Source: an uncultured Gammaproteobacteria bacterium
GTDB lineage: Bacteria; Patescibacteriota; Patescibacteriia; UBA9934; GWF2-40-263
Assembly (NCBI GenBank): GCA_964402425.1
Contig: CAYOCD010000003.1
Span: 4,608-68,607 of the forward strand
DNA length: 64,000 nucleotides
Direction: 5' to 3'
The notes beneath the pieces are model-generated. The model had not been told where the DNA came from. It did not search any database and was given only the letters and a program-made list of their open reading frames with translations. Positions 5,665 to 40,973 of the stretch are shown piece by piece (positions within the stretch are counted from its first letter, which is position 1; every line of letters starts with the position of its first letter). Both the position numbers and the translations under genes were made by a program.

Positions 5665-7403
5665 CTCTGTTTTGTTTTCAGATCAACAATTCTTCCTTGC
5701 AGTTCTCTGTTTCCATTCCATTCATTGATCGACACCTCAAACGCCACATCAATCATATCACCCAATCGAAGATTCTCCATATGGAACCCAAACGAGAACC
5801 CGATCATCTTCATCGTCTTTCCGCTTGGTGACTGAATAGTGAGGCGCAAATGTTTTCCGTCCGCGCCGACTGTAGAAAGACCAACAATCGTGACCGAACG
5901 TGCGGCAAAAACGGGTGGAGGATTTCCCATGCCGAATGGTTTACATTTTTCAATTCCATCAACAAGTTCCCAATTCACATCTTCGAGTCGCATCTCTGCG
6001 TCAATAACAAGCGTTGCGACCGCATCATCATCAACCATACTTGTAGCAAGGGTCTCTCGCATGATCTTTGTTGCCGCTTCGAATGCCTCTGAACCACAAA
6101 TAGAGAGGCCACATGCTTGAGGGTGTCCGCCATATTTTTCGAGGTGCACAGATGCGGCATGAAGAGCAGGCATGAGATCAACTCGGTCAGGACTGCGGCC
6201 CGAACCCACAAAATGATCTCCTTCTTTTCCAAAGACAAATGTTGGAAGATTAAATTCATTTAATAATTTTCCAGCAACAAGCCCAACAAGCCCTGCTTGC
6301 CATCCATCTTGAAACAAAATAATACAACCTGTTGGCGTTTCAACGAGTTGCTTTTTTGCTTCTTTATACATTTCATCCGAGCGCGCTTGCCGCGCTTTGT
6401 TTGTTGCTTGTAATTTTATTGCTTTCTCTACGGCAACAGATTCATCTTCCTCGATCATGAGTTCAAGTGCATCGTACGCATGTGCCATGCGCCCAGCCGC
6501 GTTCAAACGTGGACCGATTTGAAATCCGATCGACGTAGTATCAAGTTCTCCAATTTTTCCTCCCGCAATTTCAATAAGCGCCCTGAGTCCTGGTCTTTTC
6601 GTTTTATTAAGAACAAGAAGTCCAAAAATCTCAAGCACACGATTCTCTCCTGTGAGTGGAACCATGTCTGTGACAGTTGCGATCGCGACCAAATCGAGAA
6701 GCCATTTTTCATGACCTTGCGGAAATGAAGCACCGCGAGATCGAGCTTCGTCAATGAGGGCACTTGCAAGTTTGAACGCAACTCCTGTGCCACACAACTG
6801 TTTATTTAAAAATGTCTCACCTGGAACGAGTGGATGAATCAAGATCGCAGAATCCGGCAATTCTTTTGGCATGGTGTGATGATCGCACACAATCGTATCG
6901 ATTCCATAAGACTTCGCAAGATCAATTGCAGGCTTATTTGAAATTCCACAATCAACCGTGATGATCAAATTTGTCTTCTCTCGAAGCTGTTCTGCTGTAT
7001 CTAGCGAAAAACCATACCCCTCGAGTTCACGATGTGGAATATAATAATCAATCTTTGACGCATCAAAATTCAGCGCGCGAGAAATATCGCGCAACGTTGA
7101 AACAAGAACAGTTGAACCACACACACCATCTGCGTCGTAATCGCCATGAACCGTAATGACCTCCCCCTTTAAGAAGGCGTCGAACACACGAGCAACAGCC
7201 GCGGGCATGTTTTGAAAAGTAAATGGAGAACATGTATCACGACTCCAGTCAGGCCCCAAAAATACATCCATCTCTTCTTGTGTTTTTATTCCTCGATTAT
7301 GGAGCAATTGTAAAAGCACCGGATGTTGTTCCGGAAACTGCGCAAAAAATTCTGGCCGAGCAGGCGCGGACGCGAGCCAACGTTTTGACATGTTAAAAAG
7401 CAA
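5661..7403 (-). CDS. recJ: Single-stranded-DNA-specific exonuclease RecJ
   Basis: DHH motifs (HGDYDADGV, DHH) and a DHHA1 C-terminal domain in a 580-aa product. Confidence 0.9.
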   Translation of the reverse strand: MLFNMSKRWLASAPARPEFFAQFPEQHPVLLQLLHNRGIKTQEEMDVFLGPDWSRDTCSPFTFQNMPAAVARVFDAFLKGEVITVHGDYDADGVCGSTVLVSTLRDISRALNFDASKIDYYIPHRELEGYGFSLDTAEQLREKTNLIITVDCGISNKPAIDLAKSYGIDTIVCDHHTMPKELPDSAILIHPLVPGETFLNKQLCGTGVAFKLASALIDEARSRGASFPQGHEKWLLDLVAIATVTDMVPLTGENRVLEIFGLLVLNKTKRPGLRALIEIAGGKIGELDTTSIGFQIGPRLNAAGRMAHAYDALELMIEEDESVAVEKAIKLQATNKARQARSDEMYKEAKKQLVETPTGCIILFQDGWQAGLVGLVAGKLLNEFNLPTFVFGKEGDHFVGSGRSPDRVDLMPALHAASVHLEKYGGHPQACGLSICGSEAFEAATKIMRETLATSMVDDDAVATLVIDAEMRLEDVNWELVDGIEKCKPFGMGNPPPVFAARSVTIVGLSTVGADGKHLRLTIQSPSGKTMKMIGFSFGFHMENLRLGDMIDVAFEVSINEWNGNRELQGRIVDLKTKQS

Positions 7404-9850: not shown

Positions 9851-9967
9851 TTTGCTAAACACTTCTCACTCACTTATTGTTTGAGCTTGTCGAAAACCTG
9901 CACGTGTCAGTCTCTCGACAAGCTCGAGAAAGGTTCTAAAAAACGTTTTCCAAAACCTCACTACCCG

Positions 9968-12607
9968 CTACCCTTCCCCAAACAATCCCTGAACATCCTC
10001 CCATGTCAGATCTTTAAATCCTTCTGCCGCATCAGAAACAACCGCATCAAAAACAGCTTTCTTTTTTTCTTGAAGTGATAAAACACGCTCTTCAATCGTT
10101 CCCTTTGTTACAAGTTTGTGTACGTTTACAGATTTTGTTTGCCCAATACGATGCGCGCGATCCATTGCCTGACGTTCCACCATTGGATTCCACCACGGAT
10201 CATACAAAATAACCGTATCCGCCTCTGTAAGGGTGAGTCCTGTTCCGGCCGCTTTGAGCGACATAAGAAAGACGGATGTATTTGAATCTGTTTTAAATTT
10301 TTCAATAGACTCTGCACGATTGCGTGTCTTTCCTTCGATGGTGACATGTCCGATGGACATCCGATCGAGCTCGGGACGAATCAAATCAAGCATGGAAGTA
10401 AACTGACTGAATAGCAAAATTTTATGCCCACCATCCGCAGCCTCGCGAACCAACTCGAGCGCATAGGCAAGCTTTCCAGAAACATCCTCACCTTTTGATA
10501 ATCGTTTATCAACGAGGGCGGGATGATTACAAACTTGGCGCAATTTTGTGAGCGCCGCAAGAATTTCAATGCGGGAGCGCGCAAACCCTTTTTTCTCTAC
10601 AGCTTCAATGACATCTGCACGAACAGATGCAAGAACATCAGCATACAGCGCCGCTTGTGTTTTTGTGAGTTCACACCAATCTGTCTGCTCAACACGCGGA
10701 GGAAGTTCTGGTGCAACCGATTCTTTTGTGCGTCGAAGCAGAAATGGTTTCACGCGACGCTTTAAATTCTGAAGGGCGTTCGCATCCGCCTTTTCGCGAA
10801 TCGGCCGTTCGAACTCGAAACGAAATGACGTGTGATTTCCCAACAATCCAGGCATGAGAAAATCAAACAACGACCACAACTCATGCACACCGTTTTCAAG
10901 CGGCGTTCCTGTGAGTGCGAGTCTGTGTTTTGCCTGAAGCAACTTCACAGCAAGAGCTGTTGCTGTCTTACTATTTTTTACATACTGAGCTTCATCCAAA
11001 ATCGCATAATACAAAGGAATGGATTGATACTCTTTTACATCTCTTTGAAACAAAGAATACGATGTCACGAGCACGTCTTTCGATTTCGCCTTTTTCAAAA
11101 TTTGTTCTCGTTCTTTTGCTGTTCCTTCAACCGCCACAATAGAAAGTTCTGGAGTAAATTTTTTTGCTTCCGCAATCCAGATGGAAATAAGTGTTTTAGG
11201 ACAAATTACAAGCGACGTCCCCACACCCACAGATCTATCTGTTGAAATAACAGCAAGTGCTTGAAGGGTTTTTCCAAGCCCCATATCGTCCGCCAGAACC
11301 CCACCAAATTTGTATTTGCGCAAAAACAGAGCCCACGCAACCCCATCTTTTTGATAGGGACGCAATTCATTGGCGATTTTTTTTGGAATATTTGGTACTT
11401 CTGAAAGCTTTCCTTCTTTTGCATCCCGCAAAAAGGATGAGATAGATTCAGATGTGTCCGATAATCGAACGAGTTGATTCTCACTTGCACGCAATGCAAG
11501 TTCAATTGCACGCGCACGCGAAAGTTTATGCGTTCCGTTTTTTGACAAAGAACCTTCTTCTGTTAATTGGATCATTCCATGAAGATCTGCACGATTTTTA
11601 ATTTCAATAAAGGAACCATCTGCTGCGCGCACAAATTGTTCATATCCATTTGCGAGACGTTCGATTTCTACAGATGACAACGGACGGTCCGCGCATGCCC
11701 AATTCACAGAAAACGACAACCAATCTTCTCCGGACCCTTCCTGAAAATTCCACTCGGAAGAAATTTCCTGTTCTTGAATATGAGCGATCTGATCAAAGGC
11801 ATCATCTGCACGAATATGATACGACTTTGAAAGATCCAGAAGTCCGAGACGCAAAAAAGTAAACGCCTGTTCTGCAGATATTTCAAAAATTCCTTTTTTT
11901 GATTGTCTAAATCCATTTGCCTCCAGATCCATGCGAGCCTGATGTTCTTCTCTCCAGTCTCTGAGGGCTGTATGCAAAGAATCTTCTGCACCACGCAACA
12001 CACTCTCCTGTTCGATCGGATAAATAATCGGACCGTACACAGCCGACGCTTCAACACAAATCAGATCAAGATCATGATGATAGGTAAATGCAAGTTCAAT
12101 GCGATCAAGAAGATGTTCCTCTCGCCGAACGCGCGGCACGTGTTTTAGTCCAGATATACCACGACCAACCTGTAATTTTTCTAAATGCAAGGCTGTATGT
12201 TCCAGAGATTCAGAATCTGCGTACGTTCCGCGGTTTGTTGCATAGGCATACAATGTTTTTTGCAGATCTGATTCCGCAGAACTTTTCTTCTTTTGATATT
12301 TCTTTAATGAGACAACGGATCTGCGCGCAGCCACAAGCCCCAGCGCCACAACATGTTTACAAACAACATTCTCACGAAACGGACAATCACATTCATAAGA
12401 CAACACCTCTGAACCGTTTTCCGAGACTGTAAACGTTGGATGATACGCATAACTCCCATACACCGTTCCGGTCACCCGAATCGATCCGGATGGTAAGCGC
12501 TCGAGTTCTGTCTGAAGCACAGAACCATCATCCACATAATGTTTTCCACGCCGAAAAGCCTCTGGCGAGGAAACGTTCCGTAATATTTTGGCATCAAAAA
12601 GCGACAT
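9968..12607 (-). CDS. SNF2-family DNA/RNA helicase with an N-terminal SWIM zinc finger
   Basis: SWIM-like CDCPF...CKHVVAL; SNF2_N motifs LRPYQKDGV, DDMGLGKT, DEAQYVKN; a helicase C domain (LLFSQFTSMLD...DPWWNP...QAMDRAHRIGQ). Confidence 0.85.
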   Translation of the reverse strand: MSLFDAKILRNVSSPEAFRRGKHYVDDGSVLQTELERLPSGSIRVTGTVYGSYAYHPTFTVSENGSEVLSYECDCPFRENVVCKHVVALGLVAARRSVVSLKKYQKKKSSAESDLQKTLYAYATNRGTYADSESLEHTALHLEKLQVGRGISGLKHVPRVRREEHLLDRIELAFTYHHDLDLICVEASAVYGPIIYPIEQESVLRGAEDSLHTALRDWREEHQARMDLEANGFRQSKKGIFEISAEQAFTFLRLGLLDLSKSYHIRADDAFDQIAHIQEQEISSEWNFQEGSGEDWLSFSVNWACADRPLSSVEIERLANGYEQFVRAADGSFIEIKNRADLHGMIQLTEEGSLSKNGTHKLSRARAIELALRASENQLVRLSDTSESISSFLRDAKEGKLSEVPNIPKKIANELRPYQKDGVAWALFLRKYKFGGVLADDMGLGKTLQALAVISTDRSVGVGTSLVICPKTLISIWIAEAKKFTPELSIVAVEGTAKEREQILKKAKSKDVLVTSYSLFQRDVKEYQSIPLYYAILDEAQYVKNSKTATALAVKLLQAKHRLALTGTPLENGVHELWSLFDFLMPGLLGNHTSFRFEFERPIREKADANALQNLKRRVKPFLLRRTKESVAPELPPRVEQTDWCELTKTQAALYADVLASVRADVIEAVEKKGFARSRIEILAALTKLRQVCNHPALVDKRLSKGEDVSGKLAYALELVREAADGGHKILLFSQFTSMLDLIRPELDRMSIGHVTIEGKTRNRAESIEKFKTDSNTSVFLMSLKAAGTGLTLTEADTVILYDPWWNPMVERQAMDRAHRIGQTKSVNVHKLVTKGTIEERVLSLQEKKKAVFDAVVSDAAEGFKDLTWEDVQGLFGEG

Positions 12608-33028: not shown

Positions 33029-33184
33029 TTACATCTCATCTTCTTCCAATCCCATATCTAATGGATTTTCATCTTCTCCCTTAAAATCAACACCTTCATT
33101 TTTTGCACAATCAGAACACATTTCGTCCTCATTGATGTCAATTTCCTCTGCTCCACAGACAGAGCATGTTCCTGTGTCTTCCAT
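33029..33184 (-). CDS. Candidate 51-aa acidic zinc-ribbon protein (MEDTGTCSVCGAEEIDINEDEMCSDCAKNEGVDFKGEDENPLDMGLEEDEM)
   Basis: My own translation; below the ORF-track cutoff. It has a CxxC-x17-CxxC pattern and ends right at the bidirectional terminator. The longer 33058..33567 ORF in another frame overlaps the tRNA and is rejected. Confidence 0.3.
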   Translation of the reverse strand: MEDTGTCSVCGAEEIDINEDEMCSDCAKNEGVDFKGEDENPLDMGLEEDEM

Positions 33185-33317
33185 AAAAAAAATAGATTAC
33201 GCATTAATGAAACAATCTTAATATAAACAAAGATGCGTTGCAACGACGTGTCAAGGTATAGAAGACAACCCTCTAAATGAAAACAAAAACATCGAACTCT
33301 AGGTTCGATGTTTTTGT

Positions 33318-33392
33318 TGGTGCGCCGGGCGGGGATCGGACCCGCGACCTTGGGCTTAAAAGGCCCCTGCTCTACCACTGAGCTACCAGCGC
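33318..33392 (-). tRNA. tRNA-Lys (anticodon UUU)
   Basis: Minus-strand sequence GCGCUGGUAGCUCAGUGGUAGAGCAGGGGCCUUUUAAGCCCAAGGUCGCGGGUCCGAUCCCCGCCCGGCGCACCA. The anticodon loop CUUUUAA is identical to E. coli tRNA-Lys, and CCA is encoded. Confidence 0.85.
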
Positions 33393-33516
33393 ATAAACTT
33401 TCAAAATTTGCGCCCAGCCAGCTTAACCCTGCGCTCCGCGTTCGAAGGGGTTTTGGCCCCATCTCACTTGCAGTGCTCGGTCTGCGCCGACTGTGCATCA
33501 AATTTTGAAAGTTTAT
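33391..33516. repeat. 126-nt palindromic element abutting the tRNA-Lys 5' end: perfect 20-bp AT-rich inverted repeats (gcataaactttcaaaatttg / caaattttgaaagtttatgc) around an 86-nt GC-rich core
   Basis: Seen directly. The core contains the ggggccaaaacccc hairpin. The element lies in the tRNA leader, downstream of a TTGCCA-17-TATATT promoter. Confidence 0.5.
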
Positions 33517-33548
33517 GCACGCAACACACCTCGTCTTTAACGAGCGGA

Positions 33549-33577
33549 AATATATCAGACGAATCATAAAATGGCAA
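33549..33577 (-). promoter_or_regulatory. Promoter (TTGCCA, 17-nt spacer, TATATT) for the tRNA-Lys transcript
   Basis: The reverse complement reads TTGCCAttttatgattcgtctgaTATATT. The gagggg...cccctc hairpin just upstream follows the murG stop. Confidence 0.45.
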
Positions 33578-37555: not shown

Positions 37556-37837
37556 TTATCTTTTTTCTTGAATGCTTGCGAATCGACGTGTTGCAAGGAC
37601 TCCGTGGAAATTCTTCATTTTCTTCTGAGTGAATTTTACGAAACCGTCCATTGCTGCATACAGCGTGTCATCTTTTCCTTTTTTGACATTCAATCCTGGG
37701 TGAATTTTTGTTCCGCGTTGGCGAACCAAAATTTGTCCAGCTTTGATAATTTGTCCATCGGAGATCTTTACCCCAAGGCGCTTTGACACGGAATCGCGTC
37801 CAAGCGAGGTAGACCCTCCGGCTTTCTTATGTGCCAT
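37556..37837 (-). CDS. rpmA: 50S ribosomal protein L27
   Basis: [24 protein letters not shown]... is the canonical L27 N-terminus. No rplU lies upstream of it. Confidence 0.9.
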
Positions 37838-37859
37838 AGAAAATAGTAAATAGTTGATT

Positions 37860-37895
37860 CGTCCGAAAGTATAAAGAAAAAGGCTATTTCCGTCA
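37860..37895 (-). promoter_or_regulatory. Promoter (TTGACG, 17-nt spacer, TATACT) for a monocistronic rpmA transcript
   Basis: The reverse complement reads TTGACGgaaatagcctttttcttTATACT, ~35 nt upstream of the L27 ATG. Confidence 0.4.
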
Positions 37896-37944
37896 AGTTA
37901 TTTCCGTCTGTTATCCCCATTTCTGGTATTTAAAGCTTTTCGAG

Positions 37945-37985
37945 CTTTTTTCAAAGAAAATACCCGAGCTTTTTCCAGAAGCTCG
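37945..37985 (-). terminator. Terminator of the GC-rich island (cccgagctt...agctcggg followed by tattttcttt)
   Basis: Seen on the minus strand directly after the 38001 gene's stop. Confidence 0.5.
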
Positions 37986-38000
37986 GGTAAGAAAGGGTGG

Positions 38001-38525
38001 TTATTGGACTCCGGGGCATCCCATGTCCTTTTGCCATTCGTACGAGACGTTTGGGCAATCAGCCATGTCGAACACCTGCGGAACGTGACGCGAACGACCC
38101 GGAGCCGGAGCAGCAGGAGCTGAAGCCGGCGTCGTCGGGGCGGAAGCCACGGGCGAAGGAGCAGTCGGGATCGACGGCGTGATCGAGCTTGGTCCTGCGA
38201 CGAAGATCGGCCAGCAGAACAGGAGGATAAGCAAGCCACATGCAGCCACGATTGCGATCGCCACGCGATTGTCTGCGCCCCAACGTCGATATGCCCAATT
38301 GGCGGCGATCACGACACCAAACACAGAGAATGCAATGATGAGAGGATTGAAATTGGGCAAACCCCATTGGCCACCGAGCGGACGATTCCAAAGGGCGAAC
38401 ATGAAGAACGCACCGAAGAAATACGCCGCAACCTTGTAACCGATCGGCCAACCCTGGCGAAACACCAGACGACCAGCCCAGATCAGGAATACAGTCGTAA
38501 AGACGATCTCGAAGAATGAAACCAT
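38001..38525 (-). CDS. Hypothetical membrane protein in a high-GC island (4 TM, Pro/Ala/Ser/Thr-rich linker, C-terminal CPNVSYEWQKDMGCPGVQ)
   Basis: Strong SD (cGAGGAGGcaATG). Local GC is 58-75% against a ~40% background. No family recognised. Confidence 0.55.
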   Translation of the reverse strand: MVSFFEIVFTTVFLIWAGRLVFRQGWPIGYKVAAYFFGAFFMFALWNRPLGGQWGLPNFNPLIIAFSVFGVVIAANWAYRRWGADNRVAIAIVAACGLLILLFCWPIFVAGPSSITPSIPTAPSPVASAPTTPASAPAAPAPGRSRHVPQVFDMADCPNVSYEWQKDMGCPGVQ

Positions 38526-38552
38526 TGTGCCTCCTCGTCGCAGCGCGACGGG

Positions 38553-39011
38553 TTAGATGATGTGGTACAAGCCGTACAGACCCGCACCAATGAGCAGCTG
38601 TTGCGCGACCAAGACCGAAATGGTCTTATTCAGCGCCACTGGCATACTCCGAAGAGACATGAACATCCAATAGATGATCAAAACCGCAAACATGACGCTG
38701 AAAAAATCTGGCGGCTTACCTTTCAGAACAGCCTCGCTGTTAGCGGCGTAGAAACTAATCAGCACGAGATTTCCGTTGAAGACAAAACGCAATGGGTCAG
38801 GCTCTTTCGAGACAAACCCGCTCATAAGAGAAGCGCCTACAACGATCATGACGCCCGCACCAATAACGCTTACAAAATTTTTGGCAATGAGGAACTTGAG
38901 CCCGACAGCAATCGTCGAGAGTGTCAGAACAGTGATGAACATCGCACCTATCAAAAAGGCGCGCATTGTCACCCCTTCTTTTGAAGGAACTTCCTTCGCA
39001 TTTGTCTCCAT
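38553..39011 (-). CDS. Hypothetical membrane protein in a high-GC island (4-5 TM)
   Basis: GGAGGT lies 4 nt upstream of the internal ATG (METNAK...). The ORF track starts 4 codons earlier at a GTG. Confidence 0.5.
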   Translation of the reverse strand: METNAKEVPSKEGVTMRAFLIGAMFITVLTLSTIAVGLKFLIAKNFVSVIGAGVMIVVGASLMSGFVSKEPDPLRFVFNGNLVLISFYAANSEAVLKGKPPDFFSVMFAVLIIYWMFMSLRSMPVALNKTISVLVAQQLLIGAGLYGLYHII

Positions 39012-39125
39012 CAATACCTCCACAAATGGGAAAAACTATTTTGAGACAGATAAATATACCATAAAATGGGCATTTTGTCAATGTTTCCATACAAAAATCG
39101 CCCGTTTCGGGGCGATTTTGATTTG

Positions 39126-40751
39126 TTATTTTTTGATAGCCGCCTTCACAAAGGCTTTAAACAGCGGATGTGGACTCAGTGGTCTTGATTGAAACTCTGG
39201 GTGGAACTGGGCTCCAACAAAGAACGGATGATTCTTTAGCTCAACAATCTCCACCAAATCTTGTTCTGGGTTTACTCCCGAGATCACAAACCCAGCTTTC
39301 TCAAGCGCCTCGCGATATTCATTATTGAATTCATAACGATGACGATGACGTTCATCTACAAGCGCGGCGCCATAAGCCTTTCGAGCTGTTGTGTTCGACG
39401 CAAGCTTGCATGGATAAGAGCCAAGACGCAACGTTCCACCATAACTTCCCTCTTTGATCTTTTCATCTTGCCCAGGCAACAAATGAATCACGGGATGTTT
39501 TGTTTTTGGATCAATCTCTGTTGTGTTTGCATCTTTCAGCTTCAAGACATTTCGTGCATATTCAATCACCGCGCATTGCATCCCGTAACAAAGTCCAAGA
39601 TACGGAATCTTATTTTCACGACAATAGCGAATCGCTTTAATCTTTCCTTCAATTCCACGCGATCCGAATCCTCCCGGAATCACAACACCGTCCAAATCAT
39701 CAAGCTCTTTCAACTTCGCCGGTGACTTCTCATAGGCTTCCGAGTTGAGCCACACAAGCTTTGGTGTGCGACCATTCGCCCACGACGCATGCTTAATCGC
39801 TTCGATCACGGAAATATATGCGTCCGAAAGTGTGAAATCACCGGTCGAAAAATATTTCCCAATCACCCCAATCTTCACTTCGCCTTTTGTGTTTGCAATC
39901 GATGCAAGAAGTTTTTTCCATTTCACCACTTTTTTCAGTGGCAATTCTTTCATGCCAAACGATTTCAAAATTTTATCGCCAAACCCTTGTTTTTCAAAAA
40001 CGATTGGAATTTCGTAAATAGATTTTACATCTGGAGAACCAATGACTTGATCTGCATGAACATTTGAGAACATGGCGAGTTTCTTTTTGCGGGGTTCGTC
40101 GATGGAGAGCGTTGAACGTGCAATCACAAAATCCGGATACAGCCCTGCGGCCATCATGGTACGTACGGCTTGTTGCGTTGGTTTTGTTTTCATTTCTCCA
40201 AGCGAACCTGGAACGGGCATATAGCTCACAAGGATGTTCCGCACTTGATCCGGATACTTCATGCGCATGAGACGTGCTGCTTCCAAAAACAAAATATTTT
40301 CGTACTCACCAACGGTTCCACCAATTTCGATCAATGTAAAATCCGCATTCGCACGCTCAGTTGCATGTTCAATACGCTCGATTACCTCATTTGGAACGTC
40401 TGGAACAACTTGAACGGTTCGACCGCCATAACCGAGATTGCGCTCGCGTTGAATCACAGACTGATACACACGCCCCGTTGTCATGTAGTTGATCGATAAA
40501 ATCGATGTTTCCAAAAAACGCTCGTAGTTTCCAACATCTTGATCACATTCATCCCCATCAACCGTCACAAAAACCTCCCCGTGTTCAACTGGGTTCATGG
40601 TACCTGCATCCACGTTAATATATGGATCGATTTTAATCGCCGTAACCTTATAGCCTTTTTCTTGCAACACACGCCCTAGCGATGCAGTTGCAGCACCCTT
40701 TCCAACACCGGACATAACACCACCAACAACGAAAATAAATTTGTGAGACAT
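39126..40751 (-). CDS. pyrG: CTP synthase
   Basis: MSHKFIFVVGGVMSGVGKG is the PyrG N-terminal synthetase domain, followed by a GATase1 domain (GLCYGMQ...HPEF). The ORF track extends upstream to 40940, but the conserved N-terminus fixes the start near 40751. Confidence 0.9.
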   Translation of the reverse strand: MSHKFIFVVGGVMSGVGKGAATASLGRVLQEKGYKVTAIKIDPYINVDAGTMNPVEHGEVFVTVDGDECDQDVGNYERFLETSILSINYMTTGRVYQSVIQRERNLGYGGRTVQVVPDVPNEVIERIEHATERANADFTLIEIGGTVGEYENILFLEAARLMRMKYPDQVRNILVSYMPVPGSLGEMKTKPTQQAVRTMMAAGLYPDFVIARSTLSIDEPRKKKLAMFSNVHADQVIGSPDVKSIYEIPIVFEKQGFGDKILKSFGMKELPLKKVVKWKKLLASIANTKGEVKIGVIGKYFSTGDFTLSDAYISVIEAIKHASWANGRTPKLVWLNSEAYEKSPAKLKELDDLDGVVIPGGFGSRGIEGKIKAIRYCRENKIPYLGLCYGMQCAVIEYARNVLKLKDANTTEIDPKTKHPVIHLLPGQDEKIKEGSYGGTLRLGSYPCKLASNTTARKAYGAALVDERHRHRYEFNNEYREALEKAGFVISGVNPEQDLVEIVELKNHPFFVGAQFHPEFQSRPLSPHPLFKAFVKAAIKK

Positions 40752-40973
40752 AGGGGGAAAAATAGAAAAAAGAAAGTAGAGAGCAGAAAGGGAAAAAACA
40801 GAACTGGGGAGCGAGGGGTTGTTCAAATGCATTGGCGAGGACGCTTGCGGAGAGCTCGTCTGCAGTAGTTTGCCGAAGAGCGGACTACTCCCGCAGCCAA
40901 TGTTTTTGAACTGCCCCGAGCGAATACACAATAAGTACAAACCAAAACAGAGTTAAAAAACTCTGTTTTGGTC

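Follow-up and report, generated by a model that had tools for sequence, protein, structure and literature searches.

A GC-rich membrane-protein operon between pyrG and rpmA appears to be a long-resident, recombining locus of Candidatus Uhrbacteria

A stretch of 64,000 nucleotides from contig CAYOCD010000003.1 (the window) contains a short GC-rich block of two minus-strand genes, here called A and B, which lies between the pyrG stop codon (39126-39128) on one side and rpmA (37556-37837) on the other. Gene A (38553..39011, minus strand) encodes a protein of 152 residues with five predicted membrane helices. Gene B (38001..38525, minus strand) encodes a protein of 174 residues and is the core conserved gene of the locus. 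An original prediction, made from the letters of the window, had described the pair as a recent horizontal acquisition. Comparison with related loci did not bear this out, as equally GC-rich homologues were present at the same position in all relatives recovered. The comparisons indicate that the operon is a long-resident part of the Candidatus Uhrbacteria lineage (Patescibacteria, or candidate phyla radiation, CPR) and not an inserted island. The best overall explanation, which we hold with moderate confidence, is that of an old, recombining Uhrbacteria operon, in which B would be a surface determinant displaying a loop, and in which a raised GC content at third codon positions (GC3) would be tied to the locus.

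The order of genes around the block was the same in every context recovered: AhpC, L9, pyrG, A where present, B, rpmA, nifU, a 133-residue membrane protein (m133), mraY, ftsW and murG. The segment from pyrG to murG, with A optional, recurred in related loci L001-L007, L013-L015, L018-L020 and L022-L032. Two more distant loci had B between pyrG and rpmA and no A. In L033, pyrG was 60% and B 31% identical to the window; in L034, the corresponding values were 95% and 34%. Homologues of similar GC content were therefore found at this site in related genomes, those of L033 and L034 included, which is the outcome that the original prediction had named as contrary to its own reading. In the GTDB collection, B was found in 3 of 185,579 species genomes, all named Candidatus Uhrbacteria. 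A metagenome scan with the B alignment returned two loci only, apparently L013 and L014, with the same identity and coverage values. These data indicate that the position of B between pyrG and rpmA predates the divergence of the sampled lineages.

The two genes diverged far more than their surroundings. Across eight related loci, the flanking proteins were 78-100% identical to those of the window, B was 51-83% identical, and A was 35-46% identical to its orthologues. Ratios of nonsynonymous to synonymous divergence (dN/dS) were 0.17-0.35 for A and B together, 0.18-0.34 for A, and 0-0.16 for the flanks. These ratios show the two to be genuine coding genes under purifying selection. It would appear, then, that A and B change much faster than their neighbours while remaining under purifying selection.

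Divergence at synonymous sites (dS) did not follow that of the flanks. Between L018 and L022, dS was 0.024 in the flanks, 0.55 in B residues 1-92 and 0.19 from residue 93 to the end. The corresponding values were 0.41, 0.12 and 1.87 between L022 and L005, and 0.75, 0.48 and 1.6 between the window and L019. Since dS is above that of the flanks in some comparisons and below it in others, a faster rate of amino-acid replacement does not by itself account for the excess divergence. The mismatch with the flanks, segment by segment, points to exchange of alleles and modules by homologous recombination.

Allele relationships were also compared with those of the flanks. Flank DNA placed the loci in the clades {window, L018, L022, L020, L005}, {L013, L019} and {L015, L023}. 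Residues 1-112 of the window's B were nearest to those of L019 (89%), a member of another flank clade, and the remainder of B was nearest to L018 and L022 (90-92%). The window's A was unlike all others (at most 46% identity). Loci L018 and L022 shared 95% identity in A but 75% in the B membrane domain, and L015 and L023 shared 82% in A but 54% in B residues 1-112, which indicates that the A and B alleles reassort independently. Overall, the comparisons indicate that divergent alleles and modules (A, the B membrane domain, and the B stalk and tail) have been shuffled among related lineages by homologous recombination.

The trace of one exchange was seen in the window. Relative to L018 and L022, identity was 95-100% over rpmA, the terminator and the 3' part of B, 40-80% in the rest of B and all of A, and partly recovered at the promoter. 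The drop in sliding identity was abrupt and fell at about residue 92 of B (38221..38277, near 38250, minus strand). Values of dS on either side of this residue differed too. The break near 38250 implies that the window carries a replaced segment of about 750 bp (roughly 38250-39000) compared with its nearest relatives. As read from the alignments, this is an allele replacement within the family and not the insertion of a new island.

The B protein was divided into three parts, all encoded on the minus strand. Residues 1-109 (38199..38525) contained four predicted transmembrane helices (residues 4-23, 28-47, 61-82 and 86-109), placed with an AlphaFold2 (AF2) model of low confidence. Residues 110-152 (38070..38198) formed a predicted-disordered stalk rich in Pro, Ala, Ser and Thr, beginning AGPSSITPSIPTAPSPVASAPT and ending in a basic patch, whose coding sequence includes the 74% GC peak of the window. 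Residues 153-174 (38004..38069) formed the tail, DMADCPNVSYEWQKDMGCPGVQ, in which Cys157 and Cys170 lie 12 residues apart, the second within G-C-P, a hallmark of the family. In the AF2 model, residues 110-160 were also disordered and residues 162-167 formed a short helix. The linker and the Cys-containing tail (DCPNVSYEWQKDMGCPGVQ) had been described for the second product in the original prediction, and its view of the pair as two small membrane proteins is supported by the five predicted helices of A and the four of B.

Charge counts across the B family were used to predict topology. The mean number of Lys plus Arg residues was 2.6 in loop 1-2 and 2.9 in loop 3-4, compared with 0.13 at the N-terminus and 0.8 in loop 2-3. 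By the positive-inside rule, these counts predict that both the N- and the C-terminus are outside. Of 39 aligned family members, 38 had at least two Cys in the tail, one had none, and not one had exactly one. This both-or-neither pattern is as expected if the two Cys act as a pair. They were separated by 12 residues in 21 of the 39 and by 13-15 in most others; among the 38, Pro follows the last Cys in 27 and Gly comes before it in 25, and most members end 1-4 residues past the second Cys. Three types of B tail occurred within the genus, swapped among alleles. The first 22 residues of the linker (the AGPSSITPSIPTAPSPVASAPT start) were nearly invariant within the genus, a degree of constraint not usual in a simple spacer and one that hints at a site of recognition or modification.

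These features suggest a model in which four membrane helices anchor B with both ends outside. A short loop, closed by two Cys 12 apart and ending in G-C-P, would be held away from the membrane on the proline-rich stalk. B would thus be an exposed determinant of the envelope or surface, contacting the wall, a host, a phage or kin. Protein A, with its five helices, would be a membrane partner, though not an indispensable one.

Relatives of both proteins were few. A word-index search of a 5.8-billion-cluster collection returned 12 homologous clusters for B (48-99% identity, one named Candidatus Uhrbacteria) and 8 for A. When 1.84 billion cluster representatives were searched exhaustively with a profile, 35 matches were obtained for B, among them P0001, the 99%-identical cluster representative of the window's B (profile E-value 8.7e-90). 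One match, the LysM-repeat protein P0048, was spurious and three were short or partial; the others were 160-197 residues long and had the same architecture. A single remote cluster member carried a name, being annotated as a Patescibacteria metagenome-assembled genome. The B family was defined here as proteins of 160-190 residues with four N-terminal transmembrane helices, a Pro/Ala/Ser/Thr linker, a basic patch and two Cys 9-17 apart, the second usually in G-C-P. The window's B has every feature of this CPR-restricted family of four helices, Pro-rich stalk and C-x12-GCP. The A and B proteins were unrelated to each other (hhalign probability 0.4%).

Neither A nor B, as single sequences or as family members, gave a consistent match to the sequence profiles of Pfam, NCBIfam, PHROG, PADLOC or PDB, in agreement with the earlier statement that neither product belonged to a recognised family. 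The C-terminal sorting signals LPXTG, PEP-CTERM and MYXO-CTERM were not found, and the C-terminus of B is hydrophilic. A literature search returned nothing relevant on Uhrbacteria membrane proteins. Both families therefore appear to be uncharacterised and have so far been found only in CPR bacteria. Patescibacteria have been reported to be rich in novel transmembrane proteins (PMC10849945), and this restriction agrees with that.

The base composition of the block was as anomalous as first described. GC content was 42.4% for the window, 57.1% for B and 48.1% for A. The GC maxima of the window at 50, 100, 200 and 500 nt all fell in B, with 74% over 50 nt (38091-38140), 71% over 100 nt and 65.5% over 200 nt; a peak of up to about 75% had been predicted. 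GC3 was 0.60 for A and 0.62 for B, the two highest values among 74 crude genes (mean 0.375, standard deviation 0.071), and the predicted difference in GC content and codon usage from the neighbouring genes was thereby confirmed. As a control, synonymous codons were re-drawn from the window's own usage with the protein sequence fixed. The GC3 expected in this way was 0.38-0.39; A exceeded it with z = 5.5 and B with z = 6.9, once more the two largest values in the window. The GC3 excess therefore sits at synonymous sites and does not arise from amino-acid content. For the total GC excess of B, about half came from its Ala/Pro/Gly-rich composition and about half from codon choice. The second-highest 50-nt GC peak of the window was a tRNA gene (33321-33392; Rfam, 67 bits), and the overlapping 169-residue open reading frame (ORF) at 33058-33567 is probably spurious.

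Codon choice in B favoured NNC over NNT (0.72) and G over A in purine-ending codons (0.64-0.68), which indicates a general enrichment of GC3. The G-over-A preference in rpmA, L9 and other NNC-rich genes was 0.18-0.39. Translational selection was considered as a cause of the codon bias and found unlikely, since G-ending purine codons are enriched in B as well, unlike in the ribosomal-protein genes checked. The overlapping or antisense gene considered as another source of high GC was rejected, as the long alternative-frame ORFs were not kept open across orthologues.

The enrichment extended across the clade. Background GC was 42-47%, whereas B had 57-61% GC and a GC3 of 0.57-0.76 in all loci. 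The excess persists in every lineage although synonymous divergence between lineages is close to saturation, which argues that it is not an unerased donor signature. We infer that a process tied to the locus explains the clade-wide excess better than a foreign origin does. GC-biased gene conversion at a recombination hotspot would be the most economical candidate, and recombining bacterial genes are known to tend towards higher GC (PMC4450053). A more specific form of this explanation can be put forward tentatively: B would be a polymorphic determinant of surface identity or attachment, with a disulfide-closed loop carried on the stalk and its four-helix anchor. Its alleles and modules would be kept diverse by balancing selection arising from contacts with host, phage or kin, and reshuffled at conserved crossover points (the promoter, the pre-SD hairpin, the start of the linker and the terminator), with gene conversion as the source of the GC3. 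If this were true, the clade-wide excess would illustrate, cleanly and in a natural setting, how GC-biased gene conversion acts at a recombination hotspot in bacteria.

Alternatively, the block may have been acquired anciently, at the base of the Uhrbacteria clade, with its high GC retained as a donor signature or maintained by continued exchange with a GC-richer flexible gene pool. We consider this improbable. Such an origin would agree with the presence of the GC3 excess in all lineages, with the narrowness of the family, and with the GC3 enrichment of other accessory genes in the same slot, namely the RNA ligase (Rnl) genes described below. However, dS between lineages ranges from 0.6 to more than 2, at or near saturation, so that a passive signature should have decayed to the 37% GC3 background. 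Moreover, no GC-richer source lineage was found, the sampled genomes having the backgrounds given above.

The A protein has a conserved N-terminus, METNAKEVPS, and a conserved C-terminal QQLxxGAGLYGLY. Its gene was confined to the closer relatives and was absent from L019 (447-581), L033 (5877-6001) and L034 (5806-6001), in all of which the promoter, the hairpin ahead of the B ribosome-binding site, and B itself remain. Locus L034 retains a short remnant resembling the 5' coding end of A (…KGVPSKRE…), so A appears to have been deleted at least in L019 and L034. The distribution indicates that A is a later accessory, present in closer relatives only, that can be lost.

It is unlikely that the pair forms a conflict module, whether a toxin- or bacteriocin-immunity, holin-like or phage-defence pair, with an arms race behind its hypervariability. 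Small polytopic membrane proteins with high allelic diversity, shuffled modules and three different B tail types would be in keeping with such a role. Against it, the PADLOC and PHROG searches gave nothing beyond noise: no PADLOC model matched A, B or the neighbouring variable genes, no Pfam match to holin or LrgA/CidA families was obtained for either protein, and the PHROG matches had E-values of at least 0.014 and were to families of unknown function. There were no phage relatives and no enzyme or toxin domain. The independent reassortment of A and B alleles also argues against a tightly co-adapted cognate pair, and B persists alone in several lineages.

A housekeeping role in envelope synthesis alongside mraY, ftsW and murG, with A as a PopT-like polyprenyl-phosphate translocase and B as a wall-associated factor, is more doubtful still. 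It is suggested by the position of the locus, always about 1 kb upstream of mraY, and by sub-threshold similarity to PF04018 (DUF368/PopT-like) in 3 of 10 A-family members (L015 7515-7973, L023 1355-1813, and P0018), within profile positions 40-136 of 246. The best of these matches scored 20.6 bits (E = 3.7e-4, profile positions 40-123). All scores were below the Pfam cutoff of 26 bits, however, and A covers less than half of the profile. The three matching members represent a single allele group (L015 and L023 are 82% identical), and the window's own A and six other members matched nothing. We therefore treat the PF04018 lead as unproven. Loss of A from L019, L033 and L034, and 35-46% identity between close relatives, are unlike an essential lipid-carrier transporter, and the A-B pair is transcriptionally separated from mraY, with a terminator, rpmA, nifU and m133 in between.

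The expression signals of the block were examined on the minus strand. Upstream, a hairpin at 39094..39119 terminates pyrG and closes the preceding transcription unit; the scan lists it on the plus strand, and it also reads as a hairpin with a T-rich stretch on the minus strand. It is followed by a near-consensus promoter, TTGACA-17-TATATT with a TG extension (39053..39081, 11/12 matches), whose sequence (ttgacaaaa.g...tatggtatatt) was retained in all related loci, including the A-less L019 and L034 and the distant L033. A GGAGG Shine-Dalgarno (SD) site for A lies at 39017..39021, 5 nt ahead of the ATG at 39011. This ATG is a corrected start for the gene, as a GTG upstream at 39023 overlaps the SD site. 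The SD site of B, also GGAGG, lies at 38530..38534, 4 nt ahead of its ATG. The operon ends in an intrinsic terminator (37961..37989) with an 11-bp stem followed by TTTTCTTT, which was kept, or another hairpin found in its place, in all loci. Next comes a promoter for rpmA, TTGACG-17-TATACT (37868..37896), conserved in all loci, and then rpmA itself, the gene for ribosomal protein L27 and the conserved downstream neighbour of B, which lacks an SD site. These signals indicate that A-B is an autonomous transcription unit with strong promoter and SD signals. A separate terminator for the pair, a separate promoter for rpmA, and GGAGG sites on both genes, which host genes mostly lack, had all been noted in the original prediction and were found here.

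Directly 5' of the B SD site, a hairpin (CGTCGC-nnn-GCGACG, 38536..38550) had a stem that was invariant within the genus and a variable loop. In L033 (about 5975-5990) a hairpin occupied the same place with another stem (GGCCG-att-CGGCC). A hairpin was present here in all loci, which suggests a role at the RNA level, in mRNA stability or translation. Folding energies were unexceptional relative to shuffled sequences. The non-coding parts of the block (promoter, pre-SD hairpin and terminator) were much better conserved than the coding parts of A and B. Together with the invariant start of the linker, these three elements may plausibly serve as the crossover points for recombination.

Several further observations were made on expression in the window and its relatives. 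A GGAGG ahead of the longest-ORF start was found in 4 of 74 crude genes, B included, and 6 more had a 4-mer core; since longest-ORF starts were used for this count, the crude GTG start of A at 39023 masks its SD site. Most window genes had no SD site, among them rpmA, L9, nifU and mraY, and the L9 gene (41418-41440 upstream) had a TATACT hexamer resembling a -10 element about 8 nt before its ATG. This suggests that the organism uses leaderless mRNAs or mRNAs with very short leaders. A conserved non-coding block between the B terminator and the rpmA promoter (37897-37960, gaaaaaagc.cgaaaagc...aaatggggataac) was present in nearly all related loci and may be a regulatory or UP-like element of rpmA. 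The longest pyrG ORF (39126-40940, 604 residues, TTG start) is over-extended, as the relatives begin MSHKFIFVVGG, a start that would fall at about 40763 of the window.

The interval between pyrG and rpmA looks like a general hotspot for accessory genes. In several relatives, a gene for a T4 Rnl1-family RNA ligase (PF09511, ORFs of 414-444 residues) lies between the pyrG terminator and the A-B promoter (L005 4041-5369, L014 4543-5877, L015 6103-7347, L018 4134-5390); this slot is empty in the window. An extra ORF of 233 residues occupies the slot in L015 (5298-5999). In the distant relatives, the space from B to rpmA holds a thymidine kinase gene in L033 (6559-7167) and a reverse-strand ORF of 151 residues and unknown function in L034 (6578-7033). 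In L023, an insertion of well over 100 nt, unlike the other loci, separates the rpmA promoter from the rpmA start (about 2560-2680, start at 2682). Beyond the interval, L018 has a 23S rRNA intervening-sequence protein gene (PF05635) between ftsW and murG (9874-10242), and L033 has a Y1 transposase gene downstream of murG (12184-12516).

The absence of an L21 gene (rplU) from the window had also been predicted. No L21 was detected by tblastn with the E. coli and B. subtilis proteins, either in the window or across 34 related loci, although L27, the positive control, was detected at 1e-25. L21 was thus not found directly upstream of, and co-transcribed with, rpmA in any of these loci. A literature search returned nothing relevant on L21 in CPR bacteria. 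The adjacency of B and rpmA, with rpmA on its own conserved promoter, appears to be ancestral to the whole sampled clade, and displacement of rplU by the A-B pair cannot be shown.

Recent horizontal transfer into the pyrG-rpmA interval of a module of two membrane-protein genes, from a high-GC donor and possibly displacing rplU, is very improbable. The composition and codon usage of A and B, the strongest outliers of the window, would fit it, as would their strong SD sites, unlike those of most host genes, and the absence of rplU from the window. Against this, every locus recovered, deep relatives included, has an equally GC-enriched homologue at this site, and promoter, hairpin and terminator are conserved across these loci. 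No meaningful direct repeats flank the block, and no copies occur elsewhere in the window. The nearest tRNA gene is 4.5 kb from A-B, and there was no tRNA junction or mobility gene. No relatives of A or B were found in phages, plasmids or viral contigs, and none was attributed to other groups, the named ones being the three Uhrbacteria genomes of GTDB and the one remote Patescibacteria member. A diversity-generating retroelement target was also considered and rejected, as no part of 37840-39125 is repeated elsewhere in the 64-kb window.

An artefact can be dismissed, whether this would be the assembly chimera allowed for in the original prediction or two false gene calls on a non-coding GC-rich element, such as a structured RNA or an antisense gene. 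In AT-rich genomes, RNA genes can stand out by their high GC, and long alternative-frame ORFs are present. However, eight independently assembled contigs from seven sample accessions span both junctions at 99.4-100% identity to the window, dN/dS in the annotated frames lies well under 1, the loci share start codons, SD sites and protein motifs, and no Rfam family matched at A-B.

The preferred explanation, an old recombining operon with B as an exposed surface determinant and a locus-tied GC3, must be weighed against several points that count against it. The AF2 model of B had a mean predicted local distance difference test (pLDDT) score of 52.6, and that of A, at 50.9, was also poor; topology and exposed loop are drawn from helix prediction and charge counts only. 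The libraries searched gave no homology-based pointer to the function of A or B. The disulfide is assumed, and the two Cys of B could bind metal instead; many CPR bacteria live in anoxic groundwater. The pyrG, L27 and MraY proteins are unusually conserved comparators, and the fairer m133 is 78-94% identical. Diversifying selection leaves no direct signal, as dN/dS is everywhere below 1, and relaxed constraint on residues facing the lipid could account for some of the rapid change. Relatives were reached through B or through identical neighbours, so lineages without B could be missed. The Rnl genes in the same slot of L005, L014 and L015 also have raised GC3 (0.55-0.59). Gene conversion is what we infer from the GC3 pattern, and a shared, more GC-rich flexible gene pool would look alike.

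The locus bears on a wider question. CPR bacteria are mostly uncultured and are thought to live attached to other cells, and the largest gap in understanding that attachment concerns their many lineage-specific membrane proteins. The A-B pair is a compact and well-delimited candidate, with a strongly signalled operon, a fixed chromosomal address and a product of simple, recognisable architecture. Exchange of its alleles among lineages is the pattern expected of proteins facing outside. The block is also a cautionary case, in which a sharp anomaly of GC and codon usage marks a resident recombining locus and not a foreign insertion. It may also be a convenient system in which to test for GC-biased gene conversion in bacteria.

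Comparison with known systems helps to place the operon. The A-B block resembles genomic islands in its atypical GC and codon usage and in its autonomous promoter and terminator, but differs in being at the same site in all recovered relatives, in having no mobility genes, tRNA junction or flanking repeats, and in that all its attributed relatives are Uhrbacteria or other Patescibacteria. Protein A resembles PF04018 (DUF368, the VCA0040/PopT-like undecaprenyl-phosphate translocases) in being polytopic, in lying near the lipid II genes, and in its weak partial alignment. It differs in that the alignment is sub-threshold, partial and not shared by the window's A, and in that A is dispensable and hypervariable.

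For the B tail, type IV pilins offer an analogy only. Their C-terminal disulfide-bonded D-region loop is an exposed receptor-binding element, and B likewise has two Cys about 12 apart at its extreme C-terminus, with Gly before the second. Unlike pilins, B has no class III signal (no Gly leader and no F-T-L-I-E at a fixed distance), no globular domain, and no pilin Pfam match or homology; it has a four-helix anchor and a Pro-rich stalk, and its N-terminal length varies. The stalk itself recalls the wall-spanning linkers, rich in Pro, Ala, Ser and Thr, of Gram-positive surface and signalling proteins. The disordered, Pro-rich residues 110-152 follow a membrane anchor and would be long enough to cross the wall, although the near invariance of the first 22 within the genus sets this linker apart.

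In its evolutionary behaviour the locus resembles polymorphic surface loci that are kept diverse by recombination between conserved flanks, such as porB/tbpB of Neisseria or the pneumococcal pspA type. The A-B locus differs from these in that exposure and partner of B are putative, dN/dS is below 1, the membrane domain and not the tail is the most variable part, and the host is an uncultured CPR bacterium. It shares with them conserved housekeeping flanks around a divergent interior, mosaic alleles with intragenic breakpoints, dS discordant with the flanks, and a protein, B, that is predicted to be exposed outside the membrane.

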